Below are positions 35,708 through 43,885 of a DNA stretch of 47,095 nt, in pieces. Location: the NCBI GenBank assembly GCA_964527085.1, contig CAZGON010000003.1, positions 1-47,095 on the forward strand. The letters run 5' to 3'. A program made the position numbers and the translations under genes. The stretch comes from an uncultured Candidatus Competibacteraceae bacterium. Lineage in GTDB: Bacteria; Pseudomonadota; Gammaproteobacteria; Competibacterales; Competibacteraceae. The stretch's first letter is position 1. Each line of letters starts with the position of its first letter. The notes under the pieces were generated by a model that worked only from the letters and a program-made list of their open reading frames with translations, was not told the origin of the DNA and ran no database searches.

Positions 35708-35780
35708 TTTTATAATCTTTAGCCGAATTCATCTCAAACACTAAAGATGTTTGAGTTTTCTTCGGCTAAAGATTATAAAA
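35708..35780. promoter_or_regulatory. nested perfect inverted repeat in the divergent intergenic region
   Basis: The outer 20-bp arms 35708-35727 'ttttataatctttagccgaa' and 35761-35780 'ttcggctaaagattataaaa' are exact reverse complements. Inner 8-bp arms are 'ctcaaaca' (35733-35740) and 'tgtttgag' (35748-35755). Confidence 0.6.
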
Positions 35781-35908: not shown

Positions 35909-37012
35909 ATGGATGATCAATTTTTTGCAAGACCCATTCTAAACTCGCCTTATGAGTGCCCGTCACGGCATTGGGAACTAGACGATAGTGGTCAGCCGAC
36001 ACAACGGATCATTGAAACGCGGCGTCCGGCAGAGTTCATCACGCCGATTCCGAAGCCTAAAAAGCGCAAAGAAACGGCCCATCAGCAAGCGCTGGTTTTC
36101 GACGAAGGCAAAGGCTTATCGACGCAGGATCAGCAGTATGACCATACCGCCATCATCACTGGCGTTCGCCAGCAAGTAGACCGGTGGCGTAATTTGCCCA
36201 ATTCAAACCAGTGGCGGGTCACCCCAGAAACGGCGCGTCTGCTGCAGCACTGGCGTCACCATGAATTCAGCGGTATCCGACCCTTCTTTTGTCAGGTGGA
36301 AGCCGTTGAGACCGTCATCTGGTTGACCGAAGTCGCGCCTCACACGGGCAACCTAGGTAAGAATTACCTGGAACATCTAGCCAATGCTAACCTTGATGCT
36401 AATCCAAATTTGGTGCGGTTGGCGCTTAAATTGGCCACCGGCGCTGGCAAAACCACGGTCATGGCAATGCTTATCGCCTGGCAGACCATCAATGCCGTGC
36501 GCAGACCCCAGAGCAAGCGCTTCACCCGCGGCTTTTTGATCATCGCCCCTGGCTTAACCATCCGTGACCGCCTGCGCGTATTGCAACCCAACGATCCGGA
36601 CAGCTACTACCAGAGCCGTGAACTGGTTCCCAGCGATATGCTGATTGACTTGGATCGCGCCAAAATAGTCATCACTAATTATCATGCTTTTAAACTGCGG
36701 GAGCGGATGGCGCTTTCTAAGGGTGGTCGTTCGCTGCTCCAGGGCCGCGGTGAGGGGCTTAATACATTGGAAACGGAAGGCCAGATGTTGCAAAGGCTTA
36801 TGCCCGAACTGATGGGTATGAAGAATATCCTGGTGCTCAACGACGAGGCCCATCATTGCTATCGGGAAAAACCGAGCCGCGACGAAGAAGGCGGGCTTCC
36901 TTGGCGGAGCGTGAAGGACTGCGCGGCAAGGTGCAATGTATTTATCTTGATCCACCCTATGGTATTAAATTCAACTCAAATTTTCAGTGGTCTACCACCA
37001 GCCGCGATGTGA
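35909..37012 (+). pseudogene. Type III-like restriction subunit (Res, SF2 helicase), N-terminal fragment only
   Basis: 'FFARPILNSPYECPSRHWELDDSGQPTQRII' Res-type N-terminus, Walker A 'ATGAGKTTVMA', motif II 'LNDEAHHCYR'. Family-like sequence stops near 36890 and helicase motifs III-VI are absent. The frame then runs 39 unrelated codons to a stop at 37012. Confidence 0.75.
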
Positions 37013-39237
37013 AGGACGGTAATGCTGACCACATTACCCGCGAACCGGAGCAAGTGAAGGCGTTTCGGGATACTTGGCGTGATGGGATTCATTCTTATTT
37101 GACCTATCTGCGGGATAGGCTAACTGTAGCGCGGGATTTGTTGGCGGATAGTGGATCGATCTTTGTGCAGATTGGGGATGAGAATGTCGGCCGCGTGAGA
37201 CTGCTTATGGATGAGGTTTTTGGAGAGGATAACTTGGTTGCATTGATTGCCTACGCGAAGACAACAGGTTTCTCGGGAAACTTTCTTTCTTCTGTTTGTG
37301 ATTATCTGGTTTGGTACTCGAAATCGCTTCCTGCTTTAAAATATCGACCACTATTTCAGACTAAAGAAGCGGGTGAAGAAGGAGCGTCTAAGTATAAACC
37401 AGCATCTTCCATTCGAGCTTTAAAAAATTATGCCGTGGAACCGATGCGCCTTGCGACGTCAGATCAGCTGACGTCGCAAGGCGCATCGCCAAATTCAGAT
37501 CAGATATTTAGATTTAGGTCTAACGAGTGGACACCATCTAATGGTCTCCACTGGAAAACTACTGTTGTAGGACTTAGCAGAGTTGTAAAAGCAGAACGTA
37601 TTATTCATGAAGGTAAATCTATACGTTATGTTCGCTTTTTGGATGACTTCGCAATCTATCCACGCACTAATGTTTGGTTAGACGTGGGAGGTGTACAAAG
37701 CCGAACCGATCCAAAGATTTACGTTGTGCAAACTGCTACAGAAGCGGTAAAGCGCTGTCTGCTAATGGCTACCGACCCCGGCGACCTCGTCCTCGACCCC
37801 ACCTGCGGCTCCGGCACTACCGCCTACGTCGCCGAACAATGGGGTCGCCGGTGGATCACCATCGACACATCCCGCGTTGCGCTTGCCCTCGCACGCGCCC
37901 GCATCATGGGCGCACACTACCCTTATTATTTGTTGGCCGATAGCCCAGAAGGGCAGCAGAAAGAGGCTGAGATCACACGTACAGCACCCTCCACTTCACA
38001 GACGCGCCACGACATCCGCCATGGTTTTGTCTATGAGCGGGTGCCCCATATTACCCTGAAATCCATCGCCAATAACGCCGAAATCGACGTCATCTGGGAT
38101 AAATATCAGCAGACCCTCGAACCCTTACGCGAAGGGCTAAACAAAGCCCTAGGCCAGCAGTGGCAGGAATGGGAAATCCCGCGAGAAGCCAACCCAGAAT
38201 GGTCTGCACCTGCAAAAAAACTGCATCCCGATTGGTGGGAACAGCGTATATCCCGACAGAAAGAGACCAATGCTTCAATCGCGGCTAAAGCCGACTACGA
38301 GTACCTCTACGATAAACCCTACGAAGACAAGAACATCGTGCGGGTGGCCGGTCCTTTCACCGTCGAGAGCCTGTCGCCCCATCGGGTGTTGGGCGTCGAT
38401 GAAAACGACGAACTCATCGACAGTGTCGCCGACGGCCATGGAGGCTATAGCGAAGAACGGGATTTCGTGCAGATGATTCTCGAAAATCTCAAAACCGCTG
38501 GCGTTCAGCAAGCCCATAAGGAAGACAAAATAACCTTCACATCCCTTAAGCCCTGGCCGGGTAATCTGATCTGCGCTGAAGGGCGCTATTTCAAAGGCCA
38601 TGAGGAATCGGGTGAGGAGGAACGCGCCGCGATCTTTATCGGCCCGGAGTTTGGCACGGTTTCCCGACCTGACCTGGTGGCTGCAGCCCGCGAAGCCGGC
38701 GATGCTGATTTCGACGTGCTCATCGCCTGTGCGTTTAACTACGACGCTCACTCGTCGGAGTTCGACAAGGTCGGTCGGATTCCCGTGCTCAAGGCACGCA
38801 TGAATGCCGACTTACATATGGCAGATGATCTCAAGAACACGGGTAAGGGCAATCTGTTTGTAATCTTTGGCGAGCCGGATATGGATATCCTCGCTGCCGA
38901 GGATGGGCAGATACAGGTCAAAATCAATGGTGTTGATGTTTTCCATCCTAATACGGGGGAAGTGCGCTCCGATGGTGCCGAGGGTATCGCCTGCTGGTTT
39001 ATCGATACGGACTACAACGAAGAGGGTTTTTTCGTGCGCCATGCCTACTTTCTCGGCGCTAACGACCCTTACAAAGCCCTCAAGACCACCTTGAAGGCCG
39101 AGATCAATGAAGACGCTTGGGAGACTCTTCACAGCGATACCTCGCGCCCGTTCCCTAAACCGAAATCGGGACGGATAGCCGTCAAGGTCATCAATTACCT
39201 GGGCGATGAAGTCATGAAGGTGTTTCGGGTGGGTTGA
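36856..39237 (+). CDS. beta-class N6/N4 DNA methyltransferase (Type III Mod-like), N-terminally truncated
   Basis: Motif IV 'IYLDPPYG' comes before motif I 'LVLDPTCGSGTTAYVAEQWGRRWITID', with a low-GC segment between them. The expected upstream segment (about 15 aa, the N.LI.GDN.. motif before SLAEREGL) is missing. The only in-frame start is TTG 36856, inside the Res fragment. Confidence 0.75.
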   Translation: MLSGKTEPRRRRRASLAEREGLRGKVQCIYLDPPYGIKFNSNFQWSTTSRDVKDGNADHITREPEQVKAFRDTWRDGIHSYLTYLRDRLTVARDLLADSGSIFVQIGDENVGRVRLLMDEVFGEDNLVALIAYAKTTGFSGNFLSSVCDYLVWYSKSLPALKYRPLFQTKEAGEEGASKYKPASSIRALKNYAVEPMRLATSDQLTSQGASPNSDQIFRFRSNEWTPSNGLHWKTTVVGLSRVVKAERIIHEGKSIRYVRFLDDFAIYPRTNVWLDVGGVQSRTDPKIYVVQTATEAVKRCLLMATDPGDLVLDPTCGSGTTAYVAEQWGRRWITIDTSRVALALARARIMGAHYPYYLLADSPEGQQKEAEITRTAPSTSQTRHDIRHGFVYERVPHITLKSIANNAEIDVIWDKYQQTLEPLREGLNKALGQQWQEWEIPREANPEWSAPAKKLHPDWWEQRISRQKETNASIAAKADYEYLYDKPYEDKNIVRVAGPFTVESLSPHRVLGVDENDELIDSVADGHGGYSEERDFVQMILENLKTAGVQQAHKEDKITFTSLKPWPGNLICAEGRYFKGHEESGEEERAAIFIGPEFGTVSRPDLVAAAREAGDADFDVLIACAFNYDAHSSEFDKVGRIPVLKARMNADLHMADDLKNTGKGNLFVIFGEPDMDILAAEDGQIQVKINGVDVFHPNTGEVRSDGAEGIACWFIDTDYNEEGFFVRHAYFLGANDPYKALKTTLKAEINEDAWETLHSDTSRPFPKPKSGRIAVKVINYLGDEVMKVFRVG
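37442..37488. repeat. perfect 21-bp inverted repeat with a 5-nt loop inside the methyltransferase CDS
   Basis: 37442-37462 'cgatgcgccttgcgacgtcag' and 37468-37488 'ctgacgtcgcaaggcgcatcg' pair at all 21 positions (checked base by base). The loop is 'atcag'. Confidence 0.95.
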
Positions 39238-41309
39238 TGGAATTTCGTATCGCCGTCACCTTTACCGATAGCCTCGCCAAACTTACCGGCGAGGAACAAA
39301 AGGCCATCAAGATGACGGCCTTCGACCTGCAACTGAACCCGGCCAATCCCGGTATGCAGTTTCACAAATTGAATGCGGCGCGGGATCCCAATTTCTGGTC
39401 TGTTCGCGTCAGCTGTGATATTCGGCTGATTGTTCACCGCACCGCAGAAAGTTTATTGTTATGCTACGTGGACCATCACGATAAGGCGTACCGATGGGCT
39501 GAGCAGCGCAAACTGGAAACCCACCCTAAAACCGGCGCCGCACAGCTCGTGGAGATACGGGAGACGATCAAGGAGGTTATTGTTCCGAAGTACGTCGAGG
39601 GTGAGCAGCCAGCATCCGTGAAGCCGGTTCTGTTTTCCGGTGTGTCTGACGAAGAACTGCTTGGATATGGGGTACCCGTAGAGTGGCTGGATGATGTGCG
39701 CCAGGCGAACGAAGATAATCTGCTCGAACTGGTCGACCATTTACCCAGTGAGGCGGCCGAGGCGCTGCTTGAATTAGCCACCGGTGGTCAACCGCAGTTT
39801 GCATTACCCCAGGCGCTGGATATTGATCCCTTTGAGCACCCAGACGCACAACGACGGTTCCGGGTGGTTACAGACATCGACGAACTGGCGCGGGCGCTGG
39901 ATTACCCTTGGGAGAAGTGGACAATCTTTCTGCATCCTGCCCAGGGACAGATCGTCGAGAAAGACTACAACGGCCCCGCTCGGGTATCGGGATCCGCGGG
40001 TACCGGAAAAACCATTGTTGCATTGCACCGAGCGGTATTTCTAGCCCGCCGCCATCCCGATGCGCGGGTTCTGCTCACCACCTTCTCTGACACCCTTGCC
40101 CATGCTTTGCAAACAAAACTGGCGCGCTTGATCAGCAACCAACCGCGACTGGGTGAACGGCTGGAAGTGCACTCTATCAACAGGATTGGGCAGCGGTTGT
40201 ATGAGTCACACTTCGGACATCCAAACATTGCATCCCAGGACACGATCCAGCACTTGCTCGCGGAAGCAGCGAAAGAAATCGACGGGCATAAGTTTAGTTT
40301 GCGTTTTTTGCTGACTGAATGGGAAGAAATTGTCGATGCCTGGCAGTTACAGACCTGGGAAGCCTATCGCGATGTTAGGCGGTTGGGCCGAAAAACCCGT
40401 TTGCCCGAGCAACAGCGTGCCTTGCTTTGGTCGATCTTTGATCGCGTCCGCTTGCACCTGGAAAACCGTGGACTGGTCACCTTTCCTGGATTATTTAACC
40501 GGTTGGCTGGGCAGCTTGCCGGTTTAAAACATCCCATCTTTGACTTTATTGTCGTGGACGAAGCCCAGGATATCAGCGTTGCCCAGTTACGGTTTCTGGC
40601 AGCACTGGGAAACCAACGGCCAAATAGCCTGTTTTTTGCTGGCGATTTGGGTCAACGGATCTTCCAGCAACCGTTCTCCTGGACAGTGCTGGGTGTGGAT
40701 ATCCGGGGTCGTTCCCGCACGCTGCATATCAACTACCGCACCTCGCATCAAATTAGAATGCACGCCGATCGCTTACTGGGACCACAAGTATCCGATGTGG
40801 ATGGCAATACTGAAGAGCGGCGTGGCACTGTGTCAGTATTCAATGGGCCAATTCCCACCATACAGGTTTTGGATAGTGTTGAAGAAGAATGCAAAGCTGT
40901 CGGCACATGGTTGTCAGATCGAAGTAATGAAGGTGTGCTATCCCATGAAATGGGCGTCTTCGTTCGCTCCGCTATGGAGTTGGAGCGGGCATGCTCAGCG
41001 GTGGAAGCTGCTGGCCTGCTGTACAAAGTACTCGACGAGAACCTAGAAACAGTCAGCGGATATGTTTCCATCAGCACCATGCACCTTGCCAAAGGTTTAG
41101 AATTTCGTGCGATTGTGGTGATGGCCTGTGACGATGAGGTCATTCCATTACAAGAACGGATTGAGACAGTAGCCGATGATGCGGATTTAGAAGAAGTTTA
41201 TAACACGGAACGCCACCTATTGTACGTGGCCTGTACCCGAGCGCGAGACCAGTTACTGGTGACGAGTGTCGATCCTGCATCAGAGTTTCTTGATGATCTG
41301 CATATGTGA
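39237..41309 (+). CDS. RelE/ParE-like N-terminal domain fused to a UvrD/Rep-type SF1 helicase
   Basis: The ATG overlaps the methyltransferase TGA by 1 nt (TGATG). Residues about 1-95 ('FHKLNAARDPNFWSVRVSCDIRLIVHRTAESLLLCYVDHHDKAY') resemble the RelE/ParE toxin pattern. Helicase motifs: 'GSAGTGKT', 'VVDEAQD', 'INYRTSHQI', 'STMHLAKGLEF', 'LLYVACTRARDQL'. Confidence 0.8.
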   Translation: MEFRIAVTFTDSLAKLTGEEQKAIKMTAFDLQLNPANPGMQFHKLNAARDPNFWSVRVSCDIRLIVHRTAESLLLCYVDHHDKAYRWAEQRKLETHPKTGAAQLVEIRETIKEVIVPKYVEGEQPASVKPVLFSGVSDEELLGYGVPVEWLDDVRQANEDNLLELVDHLPSEAAEALLELATGGQPQFALPQALDIDPFEHPDAQRRFRVVTDIDELARALDYPWEKWTIFLHPAQGQIVEKDYNGPARVSGSAGTGKTIVALHRAVFLARRHPDARVLLTTFSDTLAHALQTKLARLISNQPRLGERLEVHSINRIGQRLYESHFGHPNIASQDTIQHLLAEAAKEIDGHKFSLRFLLTEWEEIVDAWQLQTWEAYRDVRRLGRKTRLPEQQRALLWSIFDRVRLHLENRGLVTFPGLFNRLAGQLAGLKHPIFDFIVVDEAQDISVAQLRFLAALGNQRPNSLFFAGDLGQRIFQQPFSWTVLGVDIRGRSRTLHINYRTSHQIRMHADRLLGPQVSDVDGNTEERRGTVSVFNGPIPTIQVLDSVEEECKAVGTWLSDRSNEGVLSHEMGVFVRSAMELERACSAVEAAGLLYKVLDENLETVSGYVSISTMHLAKGLEFRAIVVMACDDEVIPLQERIETVADDADLEEVYNTERHLLYVACTRARDQLLVTSVDPASEFLDDLHM

Positions 41310-41463: not shown

Positions 41464-41489
41464 TGCCATGTTCATGGCAAGGAATTTTT
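41464..41489 (+). terminator. candidate intrinsic terminator between the convergent helicase and asmA genes
   Basis: Stem 'tgccatg'/'catggca' (41464-41479) followed by 'aggaattttt'. The stem is short and the loop tight, so this is weak. Confidence 0.3.
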
Positions 41490-43885
41490 CAAAAAAGCTT
41501 TTTTAAGGCGTCCCTTGCTTTATCTTCCAGATTTTGCTCGTCTGTTTGTTTACCTTGCGCACCACCCGGTGCTTGAAGCTTTTTCATCTGTTTCTGCAGT
41601 AAACCTTGCGCTTCCTGTTTGAGTTCATCCTGTTGTTCTTTGACCAGGGTCTCTGTGCGAGCTTTAAGTAATCCTGCGATATCTAGCGCATAGCGTGGTT
41701 CTGCTAGAGGACCTGTCACCTTGATCGGTATGGGAACCCCCCTTAACTCCGATAGGTCTTCTCCGCCTTGTCCTTGAGCCGTACCGACCACCGTTGTGAC
41801 AAGCTGATAGTCGACTTCCTCTTGAACCAGATTAGCTGCCCCTTGTCCCCTGATGCGCAGCAAAGGAGATTTAGCTAATAGATCATCGTTTTTGGCTAGA
41901 CCATTAGTAAATTGTACGCTACCGCTGAGTTCGGAAAAATCTGTTTGCGCTGTGGCTTGCTGTTCAGGCGGAAGGGATTGACCTGCCAGAGCGGCTTTAG
42001 CTTGCCGGATCAAGCGGCCAAGATTGACGCCTTTTACAGCGCCATTACGAAAGGTAAAACGGGTTACTCCGTTAAGACTGCGTTTTATAGCCGCTGCATC
42101 GACGCCTTGCCAACTAAGTTGGGTATTCAATTGGGCAGTGCCCATCAGGCGATCTTCACCCATCAAATCCTTGAGTAACGGTCCGGCTTGAATCCCCGTC
42201 AAAACGTTATCTAACGCCATGCGCGGTTGTTGGCCGGTGGCATCGAGGGTAATACCGCTTTGCAAGGCGCCTTGATAGAGTTTTGCGGTCACTGGTTGCA
42301 AGGTGAGGATGCCTTGTTTGGCTTTGACGGGCACACGAATATCGCGGGTCTTTAGCTTAGCCGCCGTCAGCTGACCGATGCGCAACTCCCCGTCAACATC
42401 CAGTTGGCGCAGGGGTTCCAGGGAAACTGTTTCAGTGGCAGGGGAAGAAGGCGGGGAATTGGCTGGTGCTGTTTCCTCAGTAGGCGGAGGAAGATAGCGA
42501 TCAAGATTAAGGTTGTCGACCTCTAAATCAAAACGGATGGTTGGTCCTTGTAGATCGGGGACATTGAGATTGCCCGTTAACTGGCTATTGTCCAACTGCA
42601 CTTTGATGGGGTCGAGGGCCACACTACTAGGAGACGCGGTAAACTGAGTCGTCATGACGCCTTTCGTGAGGGCATTGGCATCGGCTGTGTCAGGCGCCGA
42701 TTGACCCAACCGGGTTAGCAATTGGCGCGGGTTAAACGGATCTATCTGCAGAGCGCCACGGAATTGCGGTTGAGCCATAAGGTTCTGACCGATAAGACGA
42801 CCCGCCAACTGTAAACCCAAGGTACTGATTTGCAGCTTCTCGACGGCGAGGGTCTCTTTTGCAATATTGAACTGGGCATTGGCGGTAAGGTCAAGGTCGA
42901 AATTGCCCCCGGGCAGCCCGTCGCCTTGTAGGTTTCCGGTGAGTTTTAAGGTGCTCATCCGATAGATGTTGCCATCGCCCTCGAGCACACCTTGTAGCAC
43001 GACCTCGCCGCCACTGAGGCCAGTGCCAGGGGCTTTTAGGTCACTGACCGCAAGCTTTAAACCTTGTATTAACAAAGCTTGATTAGCGATGTTCAGTGTC
43101 GCATTAGTGGTACTTAGCCCTAGAACGGCAGCCATAATCGGTTGTTCTGCCTGGATGTCGGTGTCTAGTTTAAGATCTTTGATAGATAAGATTTGGGTAT
43201 CGGGTGCGAAATTGACTTCCCCAGTCAGTACTAAGGCTGCCGCTAGAGGAGGATTAGCTGTGGTCAGTTGCAGTTGGCTGTCCACCGTAAACGGTTGCCC
43301 CAACTGGATGGCGCTTGTTTCTAAAGCAAAATCTTTAATGCGGTAACGTTGCCCGGTGGCGCGGTCATCCCAGAGAATTTGGGCGTCACGAATGTCTAGG
43401 CCATTAATACTCAATTGGTTTAACGATAAATCTTGCGACGACTCTGAGGGTTCTGTTTGGGGGGCGGGCTGTTCCACCTGGCGAGCCATCAGTGCTTGCC
43501 AATTTCCCTGTCCGGCTTGGTTAACCTCTAGGTTGAGTCGCAGTCCTTGAACCGTAATGGTGTCAAGTTCTATCTCCCTCTGTAGCAACGGCAACAATTT
43601 AACTTGCATCGTTATTTGTTCCGCCTGGGCAAAGATTTCTTGGCTATAGCCTGGCGCATTACCCAATTGCACAGCCTCTAGTTGCATCCCTAGCCAAGGT
43701 AACAATGAAAATTCAATAGCACCCCCGATGGTGAGTTTAATGCCTGTTTTCTGTTCCACCTGGGCAGTAATTTCATCCTTAAAATCGTTGGCATCGAATA
43801 GCCAGGGAAGTATCAGCGCTATGACGAGAACCACCAGGAGAACAACACCGATTCCCCAGCCCAATAGTTTCAACAGGGTCTTCAT
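41489..43885 (-). CDS. asmA: AsmA-family outer-membrane biogenesis protein
   Basis: 798 aa. N-terminal TM anchor 'LLGWGIGVVLLVVLVIALILPWLF', a long beta-rich repetitive body, and a C-terminal AsmA-like segment ('FTFRNGAVKGVNLG'). Confidence 0.8.
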   Translation of the reverse strand: MKTLLKLLGWGIGVVLLVVLVIALILPWLFDANDFKDEITAQVEQKTGIKLTIGGAIEFSLLPWLGMQLEAVQLGNAPGYSQEIFAQAEQITMQVKLLPLLQREIELDTITVQGLRLNLEVNQAGQGNWQALMARQVEQPAPQTEPSESSQDLSLNQLSINGLDIRDAQILWDDRATGQRYRIKDFALETSAIQLGQPFTVDSQLQLTTANPPLAAALVLTGEVNFAPDTQILSIKDLKLDTDIQAEQPIMAAVLGLSTTNATLNIANQALLIQGLKLAVSDLKAPGTGLSGGEVVLQGVLEGDGNIYRMSTLKLTGNLQGDGLPGGNFDLDLTANAQFNIAKETLAVEKLQISTLGLQLAGRLIGQNLMAQPQFRGALQIDPFNPRQLLTRLGQSAPDTADANALTKGVMTTQFTASPSSVALDPIKVQLDNSQLTGNLNVPDLQGPTIRFDLEVDNLNLDRYLPPPTEETAPANSPPSSPATETVSLEPLRQLDVDGELRIGQLTAAKLKTRDIRVPVKAKQGILTLQPVTAKLYQGALQSGITLDATGQQPRMALDNVLTGIQAGPLLKDLMGEDRLMGTAQLNTQLSWQGVDAAAIKRSLNGVTRFTFRNGAVKGVNLGRLIRQAKAALAGQSLPPEQQATAQTDFSELSGSVQFTNGLAKNDDLLAKSPLLRIRGQGAANLVQEEVDYQLVTTVVGTAQGQGGEDLSELRGVPIPIKVTGPLAEPRYALDIAGLLKARTETLVKEQQDELKQEAQGLLQKQMKKLQAPGGAQGKQTDEQNLEDKARDALKKLF

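Follow-up and report, generated by a model that had tools for sequence, protein, structure and literature searches.

The window is the whole stretch of DNA that we analyzed: 47,095 nucleotides from an uncultured Candidatus Competibacteraceae bacterium (assembly GCA_964527085.1, contig CAZGON010000003.1, positions 1 to 47,095). It carries three genes on one strand (+), with zero spacer between them according to the list of open reading frames (ORFs): a gene for a Res-like restriction subunit, a gene for a DNA methyltransferase (Mod), and a gene for a superfamily 1 (SF1) helicase with a RelE-like N-terminal domain (Table 1). An initial annotation, made from the sequence alone, had described this packing correctly. 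It had also noticed that the start codon of the helicase overlaps the stop codon of Mod: the sequence reads GGT TGA TGG, and the TGA (39235-39237) and the ATG (39237-39239) have one A in common. The genes lie within a non-core stretch of ~7 kb that has tRNA-Thr(TGT) at its left edge and a convergent AsmA-like gene at its right end. We think that the window probably contains a three-gene defence operon (res, mod, and an armD-like helicase gene) that was inactivated recently.

Table 1. Features of the res-mod-helicase locus, in coordinates of the window.
Feature	Position	Strand	Evidence or remark
tRNA-Thr(TGT)	34192-34267	+	ARAGORN; Rfam RF00005, 71 bits
Inverted repeat, 33 nt	35708-35780		88% complementary arms, 7-nt loop, ~130 bp before the Res ATG
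Res-like ORF	35843/35909-37012	+	ORF list; homologous start is the ATG at 35909
Res remnant	35909-36894	+	N-terminal ~330 of ~1019 residues; NF046055, and tblastn against L001
Methyltransferase (Mod) ORF	36856-39237	+	ORF list
Deletion junction	36891-36897		Frame translations compared to the intact L001 proteins; tblastn coordinates
Mod remnant	36895-39237	+	Residues ~144-922 of intact Mod; PF01555, PDLC03632, tblastn
Hairpin inside the part of Mod that encodes the putative target-recognition domain (TRD)	37442-37488		Perfect 21-nt arms, 5-nt loop; repeat search
Helicase ORF	39234/39237-41309	+	ORF list; 690 aa
Helicase, predicted RelE/YoeB-fold domain (residues 1-95)	39237-39521	+	Foldseek, profile search, alignment
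Helicase, linker and small helical domain	39522-39932	+	pLDDT, the predicted local distance difference test, of the AlphaFold2 model
Helicase, SF1 UvrD/GajB-like motor (residues ~233-690)	39933-41309	+	Pfam, PADLOC, motifs; stop codon at 41307-41309
AsmA-like gene	41489-43885	-	Convergent with the helicase, 3' of the helicase gene

Both Res and Mod are truncated. The Res ORF matches ResIII from Pfam (E = 5e-9), and it matches NCBIfam's NF046055 ("BPTD_3080 family restriction endonuclease") across model positions 2-311 of 970 only, with 452 bits instead of the cut-off of 800 bits. We compared it to the intact Res from Sedimenticola (L001, one of the loci that we recovered with the helicase as the query; see below). 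Using tblastn, residues 1-330 of the intact protein align to 35909-36898 at 82% identity, which agrees with the proposal that the gene starts at the ATG at 35909 and is broken. The remnant ends shortly past the DEAH box, so it has neither the second RecA-like domain nor the C-terminal nuclease, and beyond the junction the ORF continues out of frame until a stop at 37012.

The Mod ORF matches PF01555 (N6_N4_Mtase), and its DPPY motif is ahead of an FxGxG-type S-adenosylmethionine (AdoMet) motif, which is the beta-class order. It matches PADLOC's model of Type III methyltransferases (MTase_III, PDLC03632) with 1253 bits, across model positions 175-983 of 983 only, and residues 144-922 of the intact Mod from Sedimenticola align to 36895-39231. 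In the remnant, DPPY, the AdoMet motif, and the variable target-recognition region between them are still present, as are the C-terminal ~450 residues. Its N-terminal 143 residues are gone, and with them its native start; the sole in-frame start is a TTG at 36856, within sequence that derives from Res. The initial annotation had described a decayed restriction-modification (R-M) unit with the damage limited to Res. The break in Res is real, but Mod is damaged as well.

From the tblastn coordinates relative to the intact triad, we conclude that a single deletion of ~2.5 kb, at ~36891-36897, removed Res residues 331-1019, the spacer, and Mod residues 1-143, and damaged both genes. In the frame translations, Res "...REKPSRDEEGG(L)" meets Mod "(A)SLAEREGLRGKVQ..." in another frame. 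Put another way, Res "...NDEAHHCYREKPSRDEEGG" runs directly into Mod "ASLAEREGLRGKVQCIYLDPPYG", and the frames differ. A few bases of microhomology (GCTT) are possible at the junction.

We also considered the alignment columns that are unchanged in all other members of each family, and we scored the window copy at those columns. It has changes at 1 of 116 columns in Res, 4 of 233 in Mod, and 2 of 159 in the helicase (both of which are conservative); for all three proteins, this is inside the range of the intact members. The deletion appears to be evolutionarily recent, because the remnants are otherwise clean, with no surplus of changes at the family-invariant columns. Restriction by the window copy has certainly been lost, because the nuclease and the second RecA-like domain are absent. 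Methylation by the truncated Mod is doubtful. The helicase itself is intact, and the recent date of the deletion is the most likely reason for this. Overall, the window copy is a dead remnant of the three-gene operon.

Alternatively, the fusion of Res and Mod might be an assembly artefact (for example, the contig might be collapsed or chimeric), with an intact triad in the actual genome. Several of the related loci from metagenome bins do have frameshifts, which could be sequencing errors. However, there is just one clean break, between collinear genes, and both sides are otherwise undamaged. Also, comparable remnants, with a truncated Mod that abuts the helicase, are present in independent assemblies (L065 and L114). 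We consider an artefact to be extremely unlikely.

In those two loci, at 5092-7904 in L065 and at 8928-12076 in L114, a C-terminal piece of Mod abuts an intact helicase, as it does in the window. Another locus (L032) has lost Mod and has kept a fragment of Res. Decay of the R-M genes with the helicase kept is thus recurrent: it is seen in the window, L032, L065, and L114.

We then asked if the helicase is linked to Res and Mod in other genomes. The helicase's family is a large one: all of the 8000 helicase candidates that we scored passed E ≤ 1e-10, and the best 120 of them were at 74-80% identity. Scanning one genome per GTDB species gave at least 591 confirmed relatives of the helicase. We recovered 83 genome loci with the helicase alone as the query, and the best hits favour intact helicases. 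Genes in these loci were called as the greedy longest ORFs, and many of the loci are from metagenome bins, so that frameshifts are possibly sequencing errors.

The best 80 of the at least 591 loci, with 67-76% identity for the helicase, come from more than 20 phyla. These include Acidobacteriota, Chloroflexota, Planctomycetota, Verrucomicrobiota, Nitrospirota, and Actinomycetota, as well as Clostridiales and several classes of proteobacteria. Across these phyla, the three proteins of the sampled loci are 65-86% identical, which is unusually high conservation for an operon. For 44 loci, at least 8 kb of sequence was available upstream of the helicase. Mod is present in 43 of them and Res in 40, and none of the 44 lacks both. 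(L032 is the only one without Mod.) In every one of the 44, these genes are upstream of the helicase and on the same strand, in the order Res-Mod-helicase, and res precedes mod in 39 of the 39 loci with both genes in view. The pattern is repeated in 24 loci from IMG/VR and on annotated plasmids of Pseudomonas, Gemmobacter, and Rhizobium, whose helicases have 48-64% identity. When we clustered the ORFs from the loci, Res, Mod, and the helicase were the only conserved genes, and the flanks were unrelated. A gene with an HTH_17 domain lies upstream of Res in just 4 loci, so we rejected the idea of a conserved regulator there.

The helicase also co-diverges with Res and with Mod. Across 22 complete triads, Mantel tests gave r = 0.41 for the distances of Res and the helicase (p = 5e-4) and r = 0.36 for Mod and the helicase (p = 1e-3). 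The distances of Res and Mod were uncorrelated (r = 0.10), probably because of a variable stretch of Mod (residues ~251-425). Overall, among loci that were found via the helicase, its linkage to Res or Mod is essentially obligate. The initial annotation had suggested that the window copy is probably left over from a three-component system with intact orthologues, and that the neighbours of the helicase's homologues might show no such linkage if this were wrong. As it turned out, the linkage holds in 44 of 44 loci, which supports a dedicated system, and intact relatives occur in more than 20 phyla. One intact minimal triad, whose three genes abut, is on plasmid p1NCPPB4222 of Pseudomonas avellanae (NZ_CP091148, 18967-27027).

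The intact relatives show what the window has lost. Intact Res has ~1019 amino acids, with ResIII and, at residues 884-963, RE_endonuc (PF19778); Pfam found no MZB domain in it. Intact Mod has ~920 amino acids, including a conserved C-terminal extension of ~450 amino acids. Across the 22 triads, conservation of Mod is above 90%, except for residues ~251-425, where it is 0.37-0.55. This stretch is between DPPY and the AdoMet motif, so as expected, it would fit the placement of the TRD in the Mod of Type III systems. On the plasmids, PGAP labels the three proteins as "BPTD_3080 family restriction endonuclease", "site-specific DNA-methyltransferase", and "3'-5' exonuclease" or "UvrD-helicase domain-containing protein".

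Two of the three genes are thus similar to Type III R-M systems such as EcoP1I and EcoP15I (Mod2Res1/2). In the triad, Mod belongs to the beta class of amino-methyltransferases and has a variable region for target recognition in its interior, and Res, if intact, has a superfamily 2 (SF2, ResIII) ATPase that is fused to a PD-(D/E)xK-type endonuclease. There are several differences, however. Both proteins of the triad are larger (~1019 and ~920 amino acids), an SF1 helicase gene is a constant third member, and two internal slots contain other defence systems. Also, the order of the genes is res then mod, while in EcoP1I and EcoP15I, mod comes first and is followed by res.

The third protein has an unusual N-terminus. 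The helicase matches UvrD-helicase, UvrD_C, and AAA_19 from Pfam, while the N-terminal 235 residues have no match in Pfam. All of the helicase motifs are intact: Walker A GSAGTGKT (253), DEAQD (442), GDLGQ, NYR, and TMHLAKGLEF. The motor also has partial matches to PADLOC's models for GajB and for NERD+UvrD proteins (E = 1e-25 to 1e-28). AlphaFold2's model of the full-length helicase was too poor for structure searches (mean pLDDT of 57.6). The model of residues 1-235 was of moderate quality, with a mean pLDDT of 60 (50-70 in residues 1-95). In this model, residues 1-95 form a beta-alpha-alpha-beta4-alpha domain, residues ~96-128 are predicted to be disordered, and residues ~130-190 form a small helical domain with a pLDDT of 82-89.

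When we compared the modelled N-terminal domain to PDB with Foldseek, the top 24 matches were all RelE, YoeB, or YafQ toxins, with a probability of 1.0 and template modelling (TM) scores to the target of 0.56-0.75. A sequence profile of the domain also hit RelE3 (3bpq), with a marginal E = 0.026, and YoeB. The toxin-like N-terminal domain that the initial annotation had recognized is therefore supported, and we predict that residues 1-95 have the RelE/YoeB fold. R63, H81, D82, and Y85 of this domain are invariant in homologues down to 31% identity, and by our reading of the alignment, R63, H81, and Y85 would correspond to R65, H83, and Y84 of YoeB. More broadly, residues 1-235 recur in 3267 representative clusters, and they are N-terminal in the full-length representatives (~690 amino acids). 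The linker region is thus a conserved portion of the N-terminal module. One protein in the library of representatives (P0224) has 1951 amino acids with a RelE-like-plus-linker region at residues 1-227; it may be a fusion with another component.

Despite the shared fold, we rejected the idea that this is a classical toxin-antitoxin system (RelBE or YefM-YoeB). The domain is the N-terminus of a helicase of 690 amino acids, no antitoxin is present, and the upstream gene is Mod. The domain shares its fold with the toxins RelE, YoeB, and YafQ, but here it is fused to a helicase of 600 amino acids, and any RNase activity of it is putative. We also rejected membership in Gabija. The window has no GajA (OLD-type ATPase-TOPRIM), the models for GajB cover parts of the motor only, and GajB lacks the RelE-fold domain at the N-terminus.

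The closest relative with a known role is ArmD. Residues 10-686 of the window's helicase align to a helicase on an IncY plasmid of E. coli (32% identity, E = 1e-92), whose gene comes after DrmD/BrxHII-like, IIG/DrmMI-like, and DruE-like (DEAD+MZB) genes. A 99% identical copy of the plasmid's gene is on the chromosome of 533 of 5426 complete genomes of E. coli, including O157:H7. The window's helicase itself has no match in E. coli genomes at the DNA level. By similarity and gene order, the gene from the plasmid fits armD of ARMADA II, for which the reference loci are in E. coli NCTC 12900 and EDL933 OI-172 (PMC12458937; 10.1101/2025.09.22.677730). Plasmids of Thermus and Meiothermus have the same ARMADA II-like layout of four genes, and their helicases are 36-38% identical to the window's.

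ARMADA II is an experimentally validated defence system (PMC12458937). Its protection is non-abortive, and it requires all four genes and the Walker A lysine of ArmD (PMC12458937). In another study, armD was needed, though it was less critical than armA-C (10.1101/2025.09.22.677730). Between the two studies, an armD deletion or a Walker A mutation in armD abolished or reduced defence, and both papers describe ArmD as GajB-like (PMC12458937; 10.1101/2025.09.22.677730).

The triad's helicase and ArmD are built alike: a RelE-like domain at the N-terminus is followed by a linker and then by a GajB/UvrD-like SF1 helicase, with ~690-700 amino acids in total and alignment over nearly the full length. 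Furthermore, in both cases the gene is the last one of a co-directional operon that also encodes a large helicase-nuclease and an adenine methyltransferase. The partners are different, however. ARMADA II has ArmA (a BrxHII/DrmD-like SNF2 protein), ArmB (a PglX/IIG-like gamma-class methyltransferase), and ArmC (a YprA/DruE-like helicase-nuclease with DUF1998). The triad instead has a BPTD_3080-type subunit (ResIII plus nuclease) and a beta-class N6_N4 Mod. We found no ArmC of the YprA family (DUF1998/MZB) in the window, and none is conserved in the 83 loci; nor did ORF clustering of these loci find a conserved homologue of BrxHII, SNF2 proteins, or PglX. The window's Mod does not match PADLOC's models for PglX, DrmMI, or IIG.

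Helicases of this family are found in a third type of operon as well. In L096 (Qipengyuania citrea plasmid NZ_CP098496, 6787-18757), a RelE-UvrD helicase with 49% identity comes after a TM0106 RecB-like nuclease and a protein of 240 amino acids, and before a DUF4011 protein of 1900 amino acids. L095 (Sphingobium pSF1) has the TM0106 nuclease operon, followed by a Mod-then-Res pair of the BPTD_3080 family and then a DUF3320 protein. Judging from these arrangements, the TM0106, Res-Mod, and helicase modules seem to recombine, and the helicase family looks modular.

In most of the loci, other genes interrupt the triad. Mod and the helicase are directly adjacent, as they are in the window, in just 13 of 68 loci; the other 55 (81%) have cargo in the slot between Mod and the helicase. 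The gap between these genes is over 1 kb in 49 of the 68 loci, with a maximum of 9.9 kb. The spacer between Res and Mod is over 150 bp in 15 of 39 loci. Nearly all of the cargo ORFs are co-oriented with the triad (130/134 in the Mod-helicase slot and 15/16 in the Res-Mod slot). The cargo between Mod and the helicase includes IetA/IetS; SIR2-HerA; two types of Hachiman; defence-associated reverse transcriptases (AbiP2 and UG5-nitrilase); Dsr1; Ppl; GmrSD-like HEC-06; ABC-ATPase systems; Lamassu; AbiL; AriA-like genes; PDC-M07A; HEC-01A; a prokaryotic Argonaute (pAgo) with SIR2-APAZ; and QatA. Between Res and Mod, we found SoFic, PDC-S13, Schlafen/AlbA2-HATPase, and deaminase-HATPase. Taken together, the two slots contain at least 15 known types of defence systems in the sampled loci, along with recurrent cassettes that have no annotation.

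Where one type of cargo recurs, it differs between loci to about the same degree as the adjacent helicase does. For example, IetS is 61-75% identical while the helicase is 66-72% identical. Because of this, the frame and its cargo seem to travel together, which suggests that they are inherited together over long periods.

One of the unannotated cassettes is a trio of genes, encoding proteins of ~254, ~180, and ~140 amino acids, that occupies the Mod-helicase slot of 6-8 loci, which belong to different phyla (L060 at 8298-9956, L010 at 4174-5844, and also L009, L021, L036, L052, and L078). The trio has no match in Pfam, PADLOC, or PHROGs. By guilt-by-embedding, it is a candidate for a new defence system. 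In the Sedimenticola locus (L001), an ORF of 1559 amino acids with no match in Pfam (12048-16727) runs over the end of the helicase gene. It is followed on the opposite strand by Gabija (GajA/GajB-like) and ParE/Phd, so this triad sits in a larger defence island.

Hma, BREX, DISARM, and Type I R-M have been described as hosts of such embedding, and 96.7% of their embedded genes are co-oriented (10.1101/2024.01.29.577857). The triad is not in that list. It is reminiscent of Hma, to which the initial annotation had compared its layout. Hma has the SNF2 helicase HmaA, the 5-methylcytosine (m5C) methyltransferase HmaB, and the DUF499 ATPase HmaC (PMC8565338, PMC12839542). Both systems are three-gene operons with a helicase, a methylase, and an NTPase, are found across many phyla, and have co-oriented defence systems nested within them. 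Genes are embedded in 62.7% of the published Hma loci, compared to 81% of triad loci for the Mod-helicase slot, and GmrSD-like HEC-06 and HEC-01A-type ABC ATPases are cargo in both. But all three proteins of Hma are different from Res, Mod, and the helicase. We rejected membership in Hma: Mod is an N6_N4 amino-methyltransferase, not an m5C methyltransferase, and none of PADLOC's Hma models match Res, Mod, or the helicase. (The library does contain Hma models, and HmaA, PDLC00659, matched the ArmA-like protein from E. coli.)

We did not find any description of a triad of Res, Mod, and a RelE-fold helicase in open-access papers or bioRxiv preprints, though an earlier account elsewhere is possible, and no model library that we found names it. 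So, within the literature and the model libraries that we covered, the triad is not an already-named system. The related claim, that a helicase of this kind lies outside of any known type of R-M, needs to be qualified: we found no named triad, but the helicase does have a known relative, namely ArmD of ARMADA II (PMC12458937). The family can be seen as a widespread variant that combines Type III-like R-M with an ArmD-type helicase and hosts embedded defences, and it is apparently undescribed.

How might the triad work? Our proposal is based on the domain content, the obligate linkage, the overlap of start and stop codons, the co-divergence, and the genetics of ArmD. Mod would mark the host's DNA at a specific motif, using its hypervariable target-recognition region, and would thereby set the specificity. 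Res, with Mod, would recognize and cut unmodified incoming DNA in a Type III-like manner, perhaps after translocating or switching on ATP. The helicase would be a dedicated accessory motor, and by analogy with ArmD, its ATPase might be needed for full defence. It would probably load at a nick or break that was made by Res, and unwind or process the invader's DNA. The RelE-fold domain, which has kept the YoeB-like catalytic positions, might be an RNase or a second nuclease, or else an adaptor. Finally, the operon also serves as a stable host for the defences that are embedded in its two slots.

Several observations weigh against this interpretation. All of the loci were found via the helicase, so the sample is biased, and the rate at which Res-Mod pairs occur without the helicase lies outside of it. 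The helicase outlives Res and Mod in the window, L032, L065, and L114, and so it might have a function of its own. More distant R-M pairs of the BPTD_3080 family lack the helicase (PCC 7002 pAQ5 and Sphingobium pSF1), and the 49%-identical helicase from Qipengyuania is in an operon without Res or Mod, which implies that the partnership is specific to a clade rather than universal. The res-then-mod order is the reverse of the classical order in EcoP1I and EcoP15I (the distant clade of BPTD_3080, in Sphingobium, has mod then res). PADLOC's REase_III models barely detect the full-length Res (E = 1e-5), while NCBI/PGAP does name this family as a restriction endonuclease (an NCBIfam equivalog). In one of the two studies of ARMADA II, armD was less critical than armA-C (10.1101/2025.09.22.677730). 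And we infer all of the triad's defensive role, its methylated motif, and its requirement for the helicase from sequence comparisons.

The distant locus on pAQ5 of Picosynechococcus PCC 7002, which is a model cyanobacterium, has a layout of its own (L093). A UPF0175/DUF3368 pair (11112-11856) is nested between the distant BPTD_3080 Res and Mod, and a P-loop-plus-deaminase protein (14717-16591) takes the place of the helicase. We considered whether this third gene was a homologue of the helicase and rejected it; the two are not homologous.

The main alternative is that the helicase is an independent defence or guard module, with a single gene, and that Res-Mod and the helicase are merely the borders of a recombination hotspot that moves as a block (a "defence cassette carrier"). 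Up to ~10 kb of unrelated cargo separates Mod from the helicase, the helicase is intact in the four loci where Res and Mod have suffered deletions, the same family ends at least two other types of operons (ARMADA II and TM0106-nuclease/DUF4011), and the distant R-M pairs manage without it. On the other hand, the order and orientation of the genes are strict, the start and stop codons overlap in minimal triads, the helicase co-diverges with Res and with Mod, and every locus that reaches at least 8 kb upstream of the helicase has a trace of Res or Mod. In such a module, the helicase with its RelE-fold toxin domain would act alone, for instance as a back-up effector once restriction is blocked, as PrrC does for EcoprrI. 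The candidate catalytic residues are kept in the RelE-fold domain, but there is no antitoxin-like gene, and in ARMADA II, whose protection is non-abortive, ArmD is a component that the system requires and not a stand-alone toxin (PMC12458937). We think that an independent module of this kind is unlikely.

The triad's vehicles raise another alternative. Copies are present on conjugative, mobilizable, and non-mobilizable plasmids. In L108, L109, L111, L112, and L113, which are from IMG/VR, genes for a ParB-like nuclease, a DNA methyltransferase, the small and large subunits of terminase, and a portal protein are located a few kb downstream of the helicase. Because terminase, portal, and ParB-like genes adjoin the triad in at least 5 loci from IMG/VR, some of these copies are probably carried by prophages. 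At the protein level, phages in INPHARED had no match at E ≤ 1e-20.

So, the triad might mainly be a module for the maintenance or transfer of mobile elements, with R-M for addiction and a helicase for replication or transfer, and the nested defences might be ordinary accessory cargo. The copies on conjugative and mobilizable plasmids, the IMG/VR loci beside terminase, portal, and ParB-methylase genes, and the 65-86% identity of the proteins over more than 20 phyla, implying that horizontal transfer is frequent, would all fit. But clustering of the ORFs from the 83 loci found no conserved recombinase, relaxase, or replication gene beside the triad, and the HTH_17 gene is confined to 4 loci. 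The loci have completely different flanks, known defence systems make up the overwhelming part of the cargo, and there is the lack of matches in INPHARED. We consider this explanation to be very unlikely, and we prefer a defence operon.

If it is a defence operon, a broader interpretation is that the triad is a distinct and unnamed class of restriction systems with an obligatory RelE-fold SF1 helicase; that the helicase is portable across at least three operons (the triad, ARMADA II, and the TM0106-nuclease/DUF4011 operon); and that the triad is a major host of embedded defences across phyla, whose unannotated cargo, such as the recurrent trio of small genes, includes new anti-phage systems. 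We view the combination of these claims as plausible, with a bit less than an even chance of being correct. If the triad does work as a unit, then Type III-like restriction gains a third layer that depends on a helicase. The RelE-helicase of the ArmD type, which has been described from ARMADA II only, would then be a modular accessory of unrelated DNA-targeting defences, and the triad would offer a much simpler, three-gene setting for it. The triad is also a new anchor for guilt-by-embedding, which has been applied so far to Hma, BREX, DISARM, and Type I R-M only. The main value of the window copy is as a pointer to this family and as a natural example of how an operon decays.

Turning to the surroundings of the triad, the initial annotation had placed it on a tRNA-flanking islet with phage debris. 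The tRNA-Thr is there, but we did not find the phage debris: none of the three small ORFs that separate the tRNA from Res (34419-35585) has a match in Pfam or PHROGs. One of these encodes 109 amino acids (35256-35585, minus strand) and, although it too lacks any match in Pfam or PHROGs, it has two CxxC pairs and "CHPDRHGG", which is reminiscent of the HPD motif of J-domains. We rejected integration at the tRNA-Thr, because the 3' end of the tRNA has no further copy within the window at up to 3 mismatches and we found no integrase in the window.

A scan of the locus for promoters and terminators gave no signal above the shuffled expectation. The inner stem of the inverted repeat ahead of Res, together with a run of T, is terminator-like on the + strand (with a match at 35733-35755). 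The hairpin within Mod has a relative in L022 (5110-5176, from a Wenzhouxiangellaceae bin), whose Mod has the same type of TRD. The core of the hairpin is shared, and in the alignment of the TRD region, the outer stem in L022 has another sequence whose pairing is kept via compensatory changes. This hairpin could be a recombination or regulatory element in the specificity region.

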